DNA from: a virus
Taxonomy: Duplodnaviria > Heunggongvirae > Uroviricota > Caudoviricetes
Direction: 5' to 3' (one strand)
DNA: 31,452 nt
Virus record (IMG/VR): IMGVR_UViG_2713896902_000003
Span: 1 to 31,452 of that record
Shown: piece after piece, positions 10,655 through 15,375 of the stretch
How positions within the stretch are numbered: the stretch's first letter is position 1
Layout: every line of letters starts with the position of its first letter
The notes under the pieces: generated by a model
Database searches by the model: none
What the model was told of the DNA's origin: nothing
Seen by the model: the letters and a program-made list of their open reading frames with translations, nothing else
Position numbers and translations under genes: made by a program

Positions 10655-11032
10655 ATGACTGAACGCATAGAATTTGTTTTGCCTTATCCGCCTACGGTGA
10701 ACACCTACTGGCGCCGCCGTGGTGGCACATATTTTGTATCAAAATCCGGAGAACGTTATCGCCGTGATGTGGCGCTGATTGTTCGTCAGCAACGGCTGAA
10801 ATTAAACCTGTCCGGAAGGCTGGCAATCAGGATTATTGCAGAGCCACCGGATAAGCGCCGCCGCGACCTGGACAATATCCTGAAGGCACCACTGGATGCA
10901 CTGACACATGCAGGACTGCTTATCGACGATGAGCAGTTTGACGAAATCAATATAGTGCGCGGTCAGCTCGTTCCTGGTGGTCGGCTGGGTGTGAAGATTT
11001 ACGAAATTACAGGTGATAACGATGGCGCGTGA
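10655..11032 (+). CDS. rusA: Crossover junction endodeoxyribonuclease RusA (Holliday junction resolvase), 125 aa
   Basis: Matches RusA by recall: N-terminal [16 protein letters not shown] and the catalytic-region motif [27 protein letters not shown]; usual position just upstream of Q. Confidence 0.9.
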
Positions 11033-11408
11033 TATTCAGCAGGTTATGGAGCGGTGGGGGGCATGGGCTGCAAACAATCATGAAGATGTGTCCTGGGCAT
11101 CAATCGCTGCTGGTTTTAAAGGATTAATTCCGTCGAAAGTGAAATCACGCCCTCAGTGTTCTGATGATGATGCAATGATAATTTGTGGCTGTATGGCCCG
11201 GTTGAACAAGAAAAATCAGGATTTGCACGATTTGTTGGTGGATTATTACATAGGTGGAATGACTTTTATGGGGCTGGCACGAAAGCATGGGTGTTCGGAT
11301 ACCTGTATTGGCAAGCGCCTGCAGAAAGCTGAAGGGGTTATTGATGGCATGTTGATGATGCTTGATATCCGACTGGAGATGGACAGATACGTAGAACGAA
11401 TCATGTAG
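11022..11408 (+). CDS. Late-gene antitermination protein Q-like, about 128 aa
   Basis: Track ORF 11013..11408; ATG at 11022 preferred. Located immediately upstream of a promoter plus intrinsic terminator (PR'/tR' arrangement) and downstream of rusA; Cys/His-containing middle region ([12 protein letters not shown]...HGCSDTC). Confidence 0.7.
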
Positions 11409-11412
11409 GAGC

Positions 11413-11442
11413 TTGACCAGACACATTGTCCGGGGCTATATT
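11413..11442 (+). promoter_or_regulatory. Candidate late promoter PR' (TTGACC 11413-11418; TATATT 11437-11442)
   Basis: Near-consensus -35 and -10 hexamers with an 18-nt spacer, 5 nt after the Q stop codon and about 60 nt upstream of an intrinsic terminator. Confidence 0.5.
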
Positions 11443-11504
11443 CCTCACGCGCCAGCAAAATCTGGCGTCGGGATTAGGAACCCCGGATAGAGACCGCGAC
11501 AGAC

Positions 11505-11526
11505 ACACGCCGCGAGCGTGTTTTTT
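11505..11526 (+). terminator. Intrinsic terminator tR' candidate (ACACGC-CGCGA-GCGTGT plus T6)
   Basis: 6-bp GC-rich stem, 5-nt loop, followed by TTTTTTATT; read directly. Confidence 0.6.
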
Positions 11527-11689
11527 ATTGTCGTATGCACGCGCACATCTGAATTATGGTGGGGCGTATGGGGGAGCTGAAAAGCTCGCCGGTTGGTTTC
11601 CCGGTAGTTCCTAACCCTGTACGTCTCACCACCCGATGATTAGGAACCTGACGGTGGTGATGGTTTAGAAACCACCAGAGGGCGTCATT

Positions 11690-12277
11690 ATGACAACTCA
11701 AATTTCTGTTGAAACTCTCTCCCCGATCACCCATAACCAGATTCCTGTTATTACCACCGAACTTTTGGCGCAGTTGTACGGTGCTGAAGTTAAGAACATT
11801 CAAAATAACTACGCCAGAAATGCTGAGCGCTTTATTGAAGGAAAGCATTTTTTCAAAGTGGCTGGCGATGCCCTGAAAAATTTGCGGGTAGCTTTAAACT
11901 ACTCACAAAATTTGCAACCATCTTTAAGAGGGTTACAAATTTCCCCGAAAGCCCGCTCGCTCATACTCTGGACAGAACGCGGCGCAGCCCGCCACGCAAA
12001 AATGCTCGAAACCGATCAGGCGTGGGAAGTATTCGAAAAACTGGAAGACTGTTATTTCAGCCAGAAACAGCCACTAGCAACACAAAACTCACCCACCGAA
12101 AATGATGGATGCGCATTACTGATCCACTTCGATAAACACGGTCAGGTCGACTTTACGGAAAAAGTACCCGCCGATGCGATGGTATGCACTCTGGAACGGT
12201 TCAAATTTTATCTGGAACAACGCGGCTGGATCGTTGCCCGTAAAGAGCAACTGGTGGAACGATTGATGAGGCTTTAA
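11690..12277 (+). CDS. ORF6N-like (phage antirepressor N-terminal DNA-binding domain) protein, 195 aa
   Basis: First ORF downstream of PR'/tR'; RBS AGAGGG; N-terminal region (IPVITTELLAQLYGAEVKNIQNNYARNAERFIEGKHFF...ILWTERGAARHAKML) resembles ORF6N/Bro-N type domains as recalled. Confidence 0.5.
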   Translation: MTTQISVETLSPITHNQIPVITTELLAQLYGAEVKNIQNNYARNAERFIEGKHFFKVAGDALKNLRVALNYSQNLQPSLRGLQISPKARSLILWTERGAARHAKMLETDQAWEVFEKLEDCYFSQKQPLATQNSPTENDGCALLIHFDKHGQVDFTEKVPADAMVCTLERFKFYLEQRGWIVARKEQLVERLMRL

Positions 12278-12355
12278 AAATTTTCCCCGAACGCTTTACG
12301 ATCGTAAAAAGTTGAATATCCTGTTAAGAGTGGTTACTACGCCACACAGCTTAAA

Positions 12356-12377
12356 CCCGCCGATGAGCGGGTTTTTT
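12356..12377 (+). terminator. Intrinsic terminator after the ORF6N-like gene (CCCGC-CGATGA-GCGGG plus T6)
   Basis: Read directly, about 80 nt after the stop codon. Confidence 0.6.
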
Positions 12378-12683
12378 ATGCCCGAAAAGTGGCACAGGAC
12401 GTTAAACGCGCTGGTGGTTGCGAATACTGGTCTTCAGCTTGCTGGCTTTTTTGGCCAGGAGTTATTGGTGTTACATGTCTGACAGTTGTCTGTAACTGGT
12501 TCCGGGATTTTTACACCTGTACAGCGGAAGGGACATGAACCTTTGTTGCTGGCAGGGTTAAGCTAACCAAATCTGAAAGTGGTGTGACTGTCATTGCCGG
12601 AGAGAGATTCATGAGTCTACGCTAATCAATGCGGAGTAATTTTTCTTCGTAACGAGTATCCGACTGTTGTTTTGTCTTTATTG

Positions 12684-12708
12684 CCAGCCCATAAGGGTTG
12701 GTTTTTTT
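12684..12708 (+). terminator. Intrinsic terminator candidate (CCAGCCC-ATAA-GGGTTGG plus T7)
   Basis: 7-bp stem with one G-U pair, then TTTTTTT; read directly. Confidence 0.45.
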
Positions 12709-13084
12709 ACAGAAAATTGCCTGTAAGACAGGTGGTTCAGTAATAGCTTGGATATTGGGATATATAAAAATTGTTATATGTATCCGGGATGTTGTGCGTG
12801 CATGTGGAATACAACCGTTACTGCCTTGTTATTATTTTGAAAACTGGTCGCTGTGTATTCTTGTTCTTTCCGGATAATGTGATGTAGATCTATTACATTA
12901 CCAGGCAGCGTATTTTAACCTTTCAGAGATTCTGAGGTGTTCCCCAGTGCGGGGGTGACGGATGTGGTTGTTTAGCGGGAAGTCACAGTATGCTGTTTTG
13001 GGACTGACAGCAATATACTTCGGGAGGCACCCGACGCTTCGGATCATATCAATAATAATTATATCTTCTTTTGACCATCCTTTT

Positions 13085-13108
13085 ACCGCCTGACAAGGCG
13101 GTTTTTTG
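13085..13108 (+). terminator. Intrinsic terminator candidate (ACCGCC-TGACAA-GGCGGT plus T6), nested in a longer inverted repeat CGCCTGACAA/TTGTCAGGCG (13087-13134)
   Basis: Read directly; the outer 10-bp repeat is also followed by TTTTT (13135-13139). Confidence 0.5.
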
Positions 13109-13226
13109 TTTCTGTAAACAGCATTTGTCAGGCGTTTTTCGATATATCAAAGTATCGCTATGTAGTTTAAATGCAGAGCTGAAGAGTATTGCTGGTGCTG
13201 GCATCAAGATGAGGAAAGTTTTAGTG

Positions 13227-13253
13227 AAAAAAAACGGCTCATAAAGAGCCGTT
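13227..13253 (-). terminator. Reverse-strand intrinsic terminator module 1a (stem AACGGCTC/GAGCCGTT, U-tract from plus-strand A8)
   Basis: Plus strand reads A8-hairpin-TTAAAAA; on the minus strand the hairpin is followed by T8. Confidence 0.5.
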
Positions 13254-13377
13254 AAAAATGTGATAGTTATGCATCTATAGAGTAATTCAGTATTTTCCTG
13301 TTTTTATTGTGCAATTCCTTGATGTGGATCATGTTTGTTGTAATGACCTCAAGAGTTGAACAAACTTTATTTAGTCT

Positions 13378-13404
13378 AAAAAAAATACCCTCCAGCGGAG
13401 GGTA
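13378..13404 (-). terminator. Reverse-strand intrinsic terminator module 2a (stem TACCCTCC/GGAGGGTA, loop AGC)
   Basis: 8-bp GC-rich stem with A8 immediately 5' on the plus strand, i.e. T8 3' of the hairpin on the minus strand. Confidence 0.55.
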
Positions 13405-13526
13405 TAAAATGTGTTAACTAAGCATTCATTATGTTGTAAGTGTCATATGTGATTTTCATTTTATGAGTTTTGACGTGACTTTTTGTGATGTGATTCTTAT
13501 TTTTGAATAATAAAGTTACGTAAAGA

Positions 13527-13557
13527 AATAAAAAAGCGACCCATTTGAAGAGTCGCT
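13527..13557 (-). terminator. Reverse-strand intrinsic terminator module 3a (stem AGCGAC/GTCGCT)
   Basis: Hairpin preceded on the plus strand by AATAAAAAA (U-tract on minus strand). Confidence 0.45.
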
Positions 13558-13671
13558 TGTGAATAAAGGCGGTATGTGAGTAGTAACGTACGGAGTGAAT
13601 TTTACTGCACCAGATGTGTGGTAGATATTGATTCTGGTCAATTCATCTGTAATGAGTGGTTGTTTAACGGC

Positions 13672-13698
13672 AAAAAAATAGCTCCCCGGAAGAGGAGC
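13672..13698 (-). terminator. Reverse-strand intrinsic terminator module 4a (stem GCTCC/GGAGC)
   Basis: Hairpin preceded on the plus strand by AAAAAAATA. Confidence 0.4.
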
Positions 13699-14189
13699 CC
13701 GTGAAAATTCATGGTGAGAAGAACAAGTCTTTACAAAAGACTCCGACAGACAAAGAACCATAAATATGATATGGGGGGGATAGTGGTTCTGTGGTGATTT
13801 ATATCAAAATTTTGATGTTTTCTTGAATGCTTGATGGCTAATTATAATAGTACATATTAAATGTTTATTATTATTTTCATATTGGAATAAGTAGCATCCT
13901 TGATATATCGCCCTGTAACTAGGCGAATGCCGGAAGCAGAACCGGCTCACCAAATACATACGGGCGTCATCACCACCAGCTAACAGCACAACCATAAATG
14001 AAAGTCATAGTTATTGGGGGATCCAGACCTTTCGGTTAACTGGTTTTTCTACAGAAAATTACCAGTCTGGCTGGTGGTTCCGGGAACCGCATCAATTATG
14101 GGGTTTGAATGTAGCGGAAAGTATATTATTGATGTTGCCGGGACTGACAGCAAGGTGAATGAAAAATGGACGTTGGAAAGCTTCTGTGC

Positions 14190-14217
14190 AAAAAAACGGC
14201 ACTGAGAAAGTGCCGTT
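14190..14217 (-). terminator. Reverse-strand intrinsic terminator module 1b (stem AACGGCACT/AGTGCCGTT)
   Basis: Counterpart of 1a with compensatory stem changes; A7 on the plus-strand 5' side. Confidence 0.5.
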
Positions 14218-14338
14218 AAAAAGTAACATGTATGATATATAAGGTCTTGTTAGTATTTTCTGTATTGCGATTCGTTTTCTTTGATTTCAGTCAACATTGA
14301 TGCGCAGTAATTAGTAATGGATTGAAATTTATGCAGAC

Positions 14339-14365
14339 AAAAAAAGTACCCTCCTGACGAGGGTA
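14339..14365 (-). terminator. Reverse-strand intrinsic terminator module 2b (stem GTACCCTC/GAGGGTAC, loop CTGAC)
   Basis: Counterpart of 2a; stem register shifted and loop changed but pairing kept. Confidence 0.55.
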
Positions 14366-14507
14366 CAGGTACGAAAACATGTGAAGAAGTATTTATTGCT
14401 AGTGTTATGTAGAGCTCTGAATCCTACGCGTTCTGATCTTACAAATTTCATATTTTTTTTATGTGATGCAGTTCCTGTTTTTATTTTTTTGTCGGTGATG
14501 GTCTGAT

Positions 14508-14534
14508 AAAAAGCGACCTTTTTACAGGTCGCTT
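14508..14534 (-). terminator. Reverse-strand intrinsic terminator module 3b (stem AAGCGACC/GGTCGCTT)
   Basis: Counterpart of 3a with compensatory change (gaccc...gagtc versus gacct...aggtc). Confidence 0.45.
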
Positions 14535-14647
14535 GTGAACGAAGGAAGTATATGAGTAGTAGTGTACGTACTCTATTTTACTGCTCCAGATGTGTGATGG
14601 ATGTTGATGCAGGTCAACTTTCTGTAATAAATAGTTTTTTAACAAAT

Positions 14648-14673
14648 AAAAAATGGCTCCCGAAAGAGGAGCC
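14648..14673 (-). terminator. Reverse-strand intrinsic terminator module 4b (stem GGCTCC/GGAGCC)
   Basis: Counterpart of 4a; A-rich tract on the plus-strand 5' side. Confidence 0.4.
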
Positions 14674-14942
14674 AATAATGGAAAAGCCTGGAATCTCATA
14701 TATGTAATTGTATACATCTGTATTTTATTTATCGTGTAATAGTTTGTAGTGATTTATATCAATGTTTTGATAGTATTTCTGAATGTCTGGATGCTAATTA
14801 TAATAATGCATATCGCAGGCTTATTATTATTTACGCATTAAAATAAATAGCATCCTTGATATATCATTCTGACTCTGTTGTCTGGTAGTGAGGAATTAAA
14901 ACGGGGAGGAATATACAGATATTCCTGCCTGATATTGTCAAT

Positions 14943-14964
14943 GGGCCGCTGGTGGCCCTTTTTT
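14943..14964 (+). terminator. Intrinsic terminator 18 nt upstream of the holin RBS (GGGCC-GCTGGT-GGCCC plus T6)
   Basis: Read directly: atgggccgctggtggcccttttttatttacaggagaaaaagtATG. Confidence 0.6.
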
Positions 14965-14982
14965 ATTTACAGGAGAAAAAGT

Positions 14983-15375
14983 ATGTCTGAACCCTTATCC
15001 GGTTCCGGCACGGCTGCGGCGCTGGGGGGAGCGACGGTCTTCGGGCTGTTTACCGGGACGGATTTCGGGATTGTGTTTGGTGCATTTGCGGGGGCATTGT
15101 TTGTGGCAACGGTGCCACAGGCACTTTCAGCCTGGCGTGTGGCGGCGCATTTTCTGGTGTCGTTTATCGTCGGCGTACTGGGAGCGCGCGTGCTGTCAGC
15201 ATGGGTTATATCAAAAACAGGGTATGACGCCACGTCTGTGGATGCGCTGTGTGCAGTACTGGTATCAGTGGTGTCGGTGAAGATTCTCTCGTTCATCCAC
15301 CAGCAGGATATTGCATCGCTGGTGTCCGGCCTGTTTTCCCGCCTGCGGGGCGGAGGAGGCGGTAATGTTAAATAA
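14983..15375 (+). CDS. Putative holin, 130 aa, multiple transmembrane segments
   Basis: Track ORF 14878..15375; ATG 14983 preferred (RBS AGGAG, 9-nt spacer). Gly/Ala-rich hydrophobic segments and charged C-terminus; first gene of the lysis cassette upstream of the endolysin. Confidence 0.6.
   Translation: MSEPLSGSGTAAALGGATVFGLFTGTDFGIVFGAFAGALFVATVPQALSAWRVAAHFLVSFIVGVLGARVLSAWVISKTGYDATSVDALCAVLVSVVSVKILSFIHQQDIASLVSGLFSRLRGGGGGNVK

Follow-up and report, generated by a model that had tools for sequence, protein, structure and literature searches.

Why does the interval between an antiterminator gene and the first lysis gene of a tailed phage hold at least five intrinsic terminators that all face the late genes, and is lysis unusually tightly controlled there? 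The question is raised by IMG/VR virus record IMGVR_UViG_2713896902_000003 (Caudoviricetes), analysed here over positions 1 to 31,452, a stretch referred to below as the window. Contig BBVM01000006 of assembly GCA_001514725.1, suspected to be from Escherichia albertii, matches it at 100% identity. In it, a gene for a Q antiterminator and a promoter-like site at 11413-11442 are followed by five plus-strand hairpins with T tracts, designated T1 to T5, and then by a holin gene whose ATG lies at 14983. An earlier note on this DNA regarded lysis and morphogenesis as dependent on Q-mediated antitermination across the whole series, and the terminator nearest the holin as unusually stringent. The terminators are present, and the layout is ordinary lambdoid architecture made from known kinds of parts, not an unusually strict lock. 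The 3.55 kb from Q to the holin is probably a mosaic in which small transcription units, each with its own terminator, have been inserted into the leader of a lambdoid late operon.

Terminators and module boundaries

Sequence scanning and ViennaRNA folding recovered all five plus-strand terminators where the earlier note had placed them, and every one lies between the 11413-11442 promoter and the holin ATG (Table 1). Energies, here and below, are ViennaRNA values for bare hairpins. Those of T1 to T5 run from -7.4 to -13.0 kcal/mol, and these five are the intrinsic terminators expected between the late promoter, PR', and the late genes of a lambdoid cassette. On both strands of 11413-14980 the scan counted 15 terminator-like sites, against 2.5 +/- 1.7 expected from 50 dinucleotide-preserving shuffles. 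T2 and one minus-strand hairpin (unit b2, described below) come in addition to the 15; the scan missed both because their stems run into A/T runs (AAA/TTT in T2), and the real excess is therefore larger. Promoter-like sites as a class show no enrichment over the same interval (4, vs 9.2 +/- 3.6 in shuffles).

Three units would account for the series. The first would be an isrK module, consisting of its promoter, the small RNA (sRNA) IsrK with its a1/b1 sites and a leaky T1, a C4 RNA, the a2/b2 sites, and an ORF6N-domain gene, and ending at T2. The second would be an AT-rich island with T3 as its left boundary, a plus-strand STnc100-like sRNA ending in T4, and two tandem four-unit sets on the minus strand. 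The third would be a lysis module of the phiP27 type, with T5 belonging to its left edge.

The assignment of T5 draws on comparison with other prophages that carry the phiP27-type holin. Homology to them starts at 14941-14943, that is, at the first base of the T5 hairpin, in 5 of 5 loci read in detail and, among the matches listed from 344 Escherichia coli genomes (592 places), in essentially all. The same edge is found in phiP27 itself, where it follows stx2e, in phiSTEC1575-Stx2k, and in SerU-LTIIb phages. The phiP27-type module (Phage_holin_8, Phage_holin_3_7, endolysin) is 92-98% identical to the window through hairpin, T tract, Shine-Dalgarno sequence and holin start, but its upstream neighbour is the sRNA island here and stx2e, LT-IIb, TerB/DUF3927 or tRNA morons elsewhere. 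Some loci vary the T5 loop but leave its stem intact (GGGCC-GACAGT-GGCCC, for example). In E. coli relatives, the conserved flanks at 12469 and 14943 enclose other, unrelated cargo.

The block that ends in T2 is found in 3729 of 5426 complete E. coli genomes (about 69%), with 6176 occurrences in all, and none of 12 records taken from across the ranking annotates it. The sequence directly after the Q933 stop codon in prophage Sp5 of strain Sakai matches it at 84% identity, and a stretch 120-200 nucleotides (nt) upstream of essD in the K-12 prophage DLP12 at 88%; the block is present in phiP27 as well, between L22 and L23. As a candidate for the true PR' this block was rejected. Its hexamers are poor even at best (TTGAAT-17-TACTAC), and with a start site at that point the hairpin would fall at about +10, a position that cannot be reconciled with a promoter-proximal pause; the T2 block is therefore read as a terminator block.

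Table 1. Positions of features in and around the interval from the Q gene to the holin gene, with the basis for each. ORF, open reading frame.
Feature	Position	Strand	Basis and details
Q antiterminator gene, QuuD-like, Q21 family	11013-11408	+	Pfam PF06530, E 2.3e-52
Sigma-70 promoter-like site TTGACC-18-TATATT; isrK-module promoter and candidate PR'	11413-11442	+	10/12 matches
c4-a1b1 element (decoy targets a1, b1 of C4 RNA)	11436-11489	+	Rfam RF03163, 47.8 bits vs gathering 46.7
IsrK-like sRNA, terminator T1	11449-11526	+	Rfam RF01394, 69.4 bits vs 50
T1	11505-11521 hairpin, T tract to 11526	+	-7.4 kcal/mol, then 5 T
C4-type antisense RNA, STnc1160-like	11552-11636	+	Rfam RF01695, 67 bits vs 45
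27-codon ORF overlapping C4 RNA	11556-11639	+	Translation; two AUGs, numbered from the inferred start
b2 target repeat TTAGGAACC	11640-11648	+	Motif search; just 5' of ant ribosome-binding site
a2 target repeat GAAACC	11668-11673	+	Motif search; just 5' of ant ribosome-binding site
ORF6N-domain antirepressor-like gene (AnrP/Ant analogue)	11690-12277	+	Pfam PF10543, E 3.3e-20
T2 block, conserved 83-nt element ending in T2	12295-12377	+	Recurrence and hairpin
T2	12353-12374 hairpin, T's to 12377	+	-11.5 kcal/mol, 6 T in total
Weak extra terminator candidate	12410-12452	+	Irregular hairpin then 6 T, -7.4 kcal/mol
T3	12683-12702 hairpin, tract to 12708	+	-13.0 kcal/mol, then 6-7 T
Divergent STnc100-like sRNA candidate ending in T4	12901-13111	+	Rfam RF02076, 21.7 bits, gathering 47, E 0.014
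T4	13085-13102 hairpin, T's to 13108	+	-12.1 kcal/mol, then 5 T
Terminator d1	13226-13253 (hairpin 13253-13233)	-	-12.6 kcal/mol, 6 T tail; kept in 6 homologues; converges on T4
Candidate sRNA c1	13377-13463	-	-10-like TAAAAT 13463-13458, hairpin 13405-13385, 7 T tail
Candidate sRNA b1, ~65 nt	13526-13604	-	-10-like TAAAAT 13604-13599, hairpin 13558-13534
Candidate sRNA a1, ~87 nt	13672-13771	-	-10-like TATCAT 13771-13766, hairpin 13699-13680
Conserved AT-rich block upstream of a1	13790-13909	-	Repeats D2, D5; second copy 14745-14865 upstream of a2
Segment homologous to lambda late leader (44866-44950, between tR' and S)	13925-14025	+	83.7% identity
Weak terminator candidate, decayed T3 copy	14014-14050	+	Scan
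Terminator d2	14189-14217 (hairpin 14217-14195)	-	-12.5 kcal/mol
Terminator c2	14339-14366 (hairpin 14366-14346)	-	-13.5 kcal/mol
Candidate sRNA b2	14506-14580	-	-10-like TAAAAT 14580-14575, hairpin 14534-14511, -14.4 kcal/mol
Candidate sRNA a2	14647-14727	-	-10-like TAAAAT 14727-14722, hairpin 14674-14654, -12.6 kcal/mol
T5	14943-14958 hairpin, tract to 14964	+	GGGCC-GCTGGT-GGCCC, -9.4 kcal/mol, then 6 T
Holin, Phage_holin_8	14983-15375	+	Pfam PF16931, E 1.1e-22, profile positions 1-121; Shine-Dalgarno AGGAG 14971-14975

The isrK module and the candidate late promoter

From 11413 to 12377 the window carries a known module of the P1-immI/Gifsy-1 type, in which three Rfam families pass threshold. 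The IsrK match spans the hairpin that the earlier note had offered as a candidate tR', and T1 is therefore the terminator of IsrK; the terminator is real, but the supposed PR'/tR' pair is the IsrK/c4-a1b1 element, and a late role for it is plausible only. The product of the ORF6N-domain gene is a putative antirepressor, an annotation that its Stx-phage homologue already carries. The loops of the C4-type RNA are complementary to the two repeats ahead of this gene, GUUCCUAA (approximately 11609-11617) to b2 and GGUUUC (11595-11600) to a2, and the nonamer TTAGGAACC occurs a second time at 11474, inside IsrK, as the b1 site. The same logic, in which a1/b1 and a2/b2 target sites are complementary to C4 loops, is that of the immI region of P1 and P7 (c4 RNA, a1/b1, a2/b2, icd, ant). 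Whole-molecule RNAduplex predictions for C4 with IsrK, and for C4 with the ant untranslated region, were not better than shuffled controls, as such duplexes leave intramolecular structure out of account, and the short complementary motifs were used instead.

The order of genes, from a Q-like gene through isrK, a small ORF over a C4/STnc1160-like RNA, and an antirepressor gene to a terminator, is that of isrK-orf45-anrP in Gifsy-1 (PMC4825925). Both AUG positions of orf45 match those of the small ORF here (about +108 and +120), and the Gifsy-1 transcript of about 910 nt compares with an isrK-ant operon of about 930 nt (11449-12377), closed by T2, in the window (PMC4825925). In Gifsy-1 the short form of IsrK switches on translation of the read-through mRNA, and AnrP in turn induces both the prophage and antQ (PMC4825925). 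The window differs in that its small ORF has 27 codons, not 45, and in that its host is not Salmonella. No isrJ homologue was detected after ant, where the T2 block stands in its place, and IsrJ gave no Rfam match up to an E value of 10. The small ORF stops 50 nt before the ant ATG, and translational coupling is therefore doubtful. The isrK-C4-ant module occurs also in the nin region of the Stx2 phage Sp5, 2.5 kb upstream of Q933.

The Q protein encoded just upstream is 81% identical to QuuD of DLP12 and matches the Q21 structures 6P18 and 6JNX by phmmer (E 2.5e-7), a distant relationship. Only 5 nt separate the end of its gene from the site at 11413-11442, which is the top promoter match within 9-18 kb. 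That this site is the late promoter at which Q is loaded is plausible, if unproven, and we think it the probable identification. We know of no Q-binding element for a Q of the QuuD type. The Q-binding elements of lambda and of phage 21 reside in the spacer between the -35 and -10 hexamers. In the window this spacer is specific to the Q-linked version of the promoter: homology to the Sp5 copy of the module begins at the -10 hexamer and takes in all downstream sequence, while the spacer differs there and is preceded by a TTGAC -35 of its own. Among Q-linked versions, those of E. coli relatives and of a sister allele (see below), the sequence is 100% identical from the 3' end of Q to +50. With a Q-linked-specific spacer joined to a -10 and downstream sequence of isrK type, the promoter therefore looks chimeric, its upstream half coming from the Q side and its downstream half from the isrK module, which suggests that the promoter next to Q is a chimeric PR'. 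A -10-like CAAAAT at 11456-11461 (about +8 to +13) is at most suggestive of a pause element.

Compared with the Q cassettes of lambda, 21, 82 and 933W, the locus has the same Q gene, sigma-70-like promoter within 5 nt, terminator 57-78 nt further on, and late genes on the same strand. It departs from them in four respects. The short terminated RNA is IsrK/c4-a1b1 rather than a 6S-like RNA; some 3.5 kb of antirepressor operon and sRNA island precede the holin; Q-binding and pause elements are not recognised; and the downstream half of the promoter is found away from Q as well, in Sp5.

The last point weighs against a late role for 11413-11442, since in Sp5 this promoter, as part of the isrK module, lies away from any Q. 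So does the state of DLP12, where, for all the similarity of the Q proteins, quuD is not followed by an isrK module and only the T2 block is common with the window. The identity of PR' is therefore not settled. In an alternative account, 11413-11442 would serve only isrK and the antirepressor, the Q-loaded promoter would lie after T2 or in the island, and only T3 to T5, or T5 by itself, would stand in the late leader. The true PR'/tR' pair of Sp5 (StxS) is located after Q, apart from the isrK module in the nin region (PMC7547250). The regulatory region of the DLP12 lysis operon has been described as -121 to +650 (PMC7918800), and if that fragment ends near essD, a point on which the source is silent, transcription in DLP12 would start far from quuD. 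The lambda-like late-leader fragment at 13925-14025 also suits a promoter further downstream. However, from T2 to the holin no other plus-strand promoter match above 9/12 was found, and in 12378-12680 none at all. The invariant junction of Q with the promoter, found in the same order in Gifsy-1 (PMC4825925), and the Q-linked-specific spacer likewise fit a PR' directly behind Q. We regard a downstream Q-loaded promoter as a real contender but rather unlikely, and keep to 11413-11442 as the probable site of Q loading.

The AT-rich island and its candidate small RNAs

Between 12470 and 14942 the GC content is 30-43%, against 50-58% in the flanks, and there is no credible gene. The island is built of two tandem units of about 960 nt each (repeat families D1-D7). 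Inserted in the late operon, deviant in base composition and furnished with its own terminators, it has the attributes of a moron, a concept reportedly introduced by Juhala et al. in 2000. A search for tRNA genes, frequent occupants of this site, found none. A protein-coding reading was considered and rejected, as the only ORFs longer than 60 codons, of 81 and 78 residues on the minus strand, cross two terminators, are mutually unrelated between units, and have no counterpart in the E. coli homologues. Eight public assemblies carry an identical ORF6N protein; the five of these with contigs covering the whole 2.6-2.7 kb gap between ORF6N and holin have no gene call in it, and one further assembly with this ORF6N protein has a single call of 105 residues.

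The reader behind the earlier note overlooked, besides the gene-free AT-rich stretch and its tandem build, eight strong terminators on the minus strand (-12.2 to -14.4 kcal/mol), which form two sets of four families, a to d, at a spacing of about 150 nt; these letters name hairpin units and are distinct from the C4 target sites above. Their T tails lie on the minus strand only and the plus-strand side is A-rich, and the late transcript would therefore not be stopped by these hairpins. All four families keep the T tail and a hairpin of -10.9 to -15.0 kcal/mol in 6-7 homologues of only about 70% identity. The c stem occurs in compensatory variants (AUACCCUCC/GGAGGGUAU, GUACCCUC/GAGGGUAC, ACGCCCC/GGGGCGU and GCCCUC/GAGGGC), and the d stem changes from GGCUC/GAGCC in d1 to GGCAC/GUGCC in d2. 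A conserved U-rich tract precedes every minus-strand hairpin, and the complete Hfq-type 3' module (U-rich tract, GC hairpin, poly-U tail) can be recognised in all eight units as well as in T3 and T4. In families a, b and c a TAnAAT box is also conserved, 40-66 nt upstream of the hairpin, and for b1 it is kept in 5 of 5 sequence variants; taken as promoter elements, the boxes of these three families predict RNAs of approximately 65-90 nt. The AT-rich block upstream of a1 and a2 contains TTGATATAAATCAC and TATAAT, in columns that are invariant in alignments. Maintained by compensatory changes in diverged homologues, these hairpins therefore probably belong to sRNA genes, and we infer that the eight minus-strand units are probably transcribed antisense to the late transcript.

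Several results weigh against this. The scan of the island found no minus-strand sigma-70 promoter of at least 9/12, and the -10-like boxes come with poor -35 hexamers, which is the chief weakness of the case for sRNA genes. AgvB, AsxR and Esr41 gave no Rfam match up to an E value of 10, and BLAST at word size 9 found no similarity to the E2348/69 loci holding PasA, PasC and PasD, with the PasB locus outside the comparison. With neither a canonical minus-strand promoter nor a match to an Rfam family, the hairpins might instead be back-up terminators or insulators against antisense transcription into ant and Q, or decaying remnants of morons. Such origins do not readily explain four families at regular spacing, each member with its U-rich tract and most with a box at a set distance, nor features kept by compensatory changes while the flanks diverge to about 70%. 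The d unit of the E. coli locus PCP06235, moreover, has a 9/12 promoter (TTGACT-17-AATCAT) 58 nt before its hairpin, and convergent sRNA genes are established at the same position in prophages of enterohaemorrhagic E. coli (EHEC; PMC4104026). We consider insulators or remnants unlikely and treat the eight units as probable sRNA genes.

On the plus strand, T3 forms the left edge of the first island unit, and repeat D3 pairs 12699-12738 with 14041-14080. The hairpins that follow T3 (12715-12805) and its decayed copy (14055-14080) give a weak match to STnc490, the left-end RNA of IS200 (25 bits, E 0.008); they may be what is left of an IS200-like end that marks where each island unit begins on the left. 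The STnc100-like candidate ending in T4 matches the full length of its model and shares the CGGGAGGCACCCG hairpin with it, but its score is far under the gathering threshold, which counts against the assignment. Its E. coli counterpart, about 71% identical, is an independent sub-threshold match (23.7 bits). More than 3000 E. coli genomes contain some 180 nt of the element at about 70% identity, typically between phage tRNA genes and the holin, and none of the 25 records listed annotates it. The plus-strand element ends at 13108 and the facing unit d1 at 13226, so that the two converge. The lambda-like segment further on fits the view that the plus strand of the island is an old late-operon leader that received inserted units. 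Over about 62 nt the same segment, an unannotated but conserved piece of leader or linker, matches P7 and D6 at 87% identity, where it lies upstream of a terB moron.

Relatives of the island are few and diverged. The stretch 12470-12880 had no E. coli match, even in a distant search mode, and an exact-pattern scan with two conserved island motifs returned 0 matches for each in the GTDB species-representative genomes and 4 contigs in IMG/VR. A single-unit version, at about 71% identity, is present in six E. coli genomes and four IMG/VR contigs. The sister allele, found in seven assemblies, is near-identical to the window up to about 13130, with an identical ORF6N, and again from about 14655, through T5 and the holin start. 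From d1 to b2 it is only 70-77% identical, and the conserved block upstream of a1 (13825-13923) is missing. Divergence confined to d1-b2 is consistent with cassette exchange or diversifying selection; by these alignments, the cassette either is subject to exchange or evolves far more rapidly than the sequence around it.

Lambdoid prophages of EHEC are described as generally having sRNA genes in convergent orientation at the moron site 3' of PR' (Tree et al., PMC4104026). In Sp5 a bona fide STnc100 on the plus strand converges on AsxR on the minus strand directly after stx2B, in enteropathogenic E. coli (EPEC) the Pas sRNAs occupy the interval from Q to the lysis genes, and PCP06235 has the same convergent layout between a Q-like gene and the holin. 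The island resembles the loci of AsxR, AgvB, STnc100/EcOnc27, Esr41 and PasA-D in its position between Q/PR' and the lysis genes and in the convergence of a plus-strand STnc100-like element on short minus-strand units. It also resembles them in the U-rich tract, hairpin and poly-U tail of each unit, and in being AT-rich, free of ORFs, variable in copy number and diverged between alleles. It differs in that its units belong neither by sequence nor by covariance model to AsxR, AgvB, Esr41 or the three Pas loci compared, and in having four minus-strand units per cassette, in tandem up to eight, instead of a single convergent pair. The island is best read as a new, expanded instance of this known arrangement. 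A bolder proposal would make it a fast-diversifying tandem array of eight antisense sRNA genes in the late leader, acting on host or phage targets in the lysogen. The Q-modified late transcript, complementary to all of them, could then titrate or destroy them (as a sponge, or through RNase III) or collide with their transcription, and the sRNA programme would be coupled to the lysis-lysogeny switch. We think this quite improbable.

The lysis module and the proposed function of the terminators

Downstream of the holin gene follow a second holin gene and a GH108 endolysin gene (PF05449, PF05838, PF09374). The earlier note had put T5 18 nt upstream of the ribosome-binding site of the holin. T5 is indeed close, but 18 nt is its distance to the ATG, and only 6 nt separate it from the Shine-Dalgarno sequence. 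Eighteen nt is too short for a promoter, and every lysis transcript must therefore pass at least T5, for which antitermination by Q is the textbook means. From its position T5 may, in addition, terminate a plus-strand RNA of about 90 nt. A 9/12 promoter-like site lies just upstream of T5, at 14838-14867, and a perfect 8-bp hairpin, AGGAATAT-ACAG-ATATTCCT, at 14907-14926. Relatives in E. coli and phiP27 often have tandem terminators before the holin, with another, longer terminator-like hairpin, ACACCACACAAAAGGCATCTGCGGGTGCCTTTGACGGGGTGTTTTTT, directly 5' of the T5 homologue; the window lacks this element.

The placement of T5, which had been called unusually stringent, proved to be common: T5 or an equivalent precedes the holin in all lambdoid loci examined. 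With other holin types, a hairpin and T run stand 40-110 nt before the holin start at S of Sp5, in EPEC prophages PP2 and PP4, and in PCP06235; lambda has a weaker hairpin some 100 nt ahead of S. Wherever a moron with a promoter of its own lies upstream of lethal lysis genes, such a terminator is to be expected. The qsr' region of DLP12 (quuD, nmpC moron, essD) offers a parallel, with a moron between Q and holin that is oriented against the late genes, and with the T2 block again in the leader upstream of the holin; its moron is a porin gene, the isrK/ant module is lacking, and the holin is of another type. It is thus very improbable that T1 to T5 form a dedicated serial attenuator of exceptional stringency with T5 as a special extra lock, for although five sense-strand terminators do separate the Q-adjacent promoter from the holin and no promoter fits between T5 and the ATG, each terminator is the end of an independent, separately conserved module, and some E. 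coli relatives have two tandem terminators before the holin, which makes the arrangement the norm.

As parts of a mosaic, the terminators would have two states. In the lysogen each would end its own small transcript, and together they would shield the lethal lysis genes from moron and sRNA promoters. On induction, a Q of the QuuD/Q21 family would load on RNA polymerase, most probably at the promoter directly after its own gene. Q would then narrow the RNA exit channel, as in the nozzle model of Q21 (bioRxiv 10.1101/651190), and with hairpins blocked the polymerase would cross T1 to T5 into the holin and morphogenesis genes. Architecture and family membership make Q-dependent read-through of T1-T5 the likely mechanism. 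The proposal that lysis depends on Q over about 3.5 kb is therefore supported in part, by the Q gene, the adjacent promoter match and an obligatory T5; what lacks support is the idea of a purpose-built series, and the identity of PR' is not settled.

A series of terminators between Q and the lysis genes, with one just before the holin, is thus the normal lambdoid shield against transcription from morons, through which Q reads, and in this locus the edges of the mosaic modules fall exactly on terminator hairpins. The module of IsrK, C4 and antirepressor, the sRNA-like island and the T2 block each add a new member or variant to a known class. About nine conserved sRNA-like units that carry no annotation, a widespread STnc100-like element among them, form a compact cluster, alongside the 83-nt T2 block. 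Also worth noting is that, outside Salmonella, an IsrK/C4/antirepressor switch immediately follows a QuuD-type Q gene: should Q allow passage of the IsrK terminator, it would boost antirepressor synthesis, forming a positive-feedback loop.

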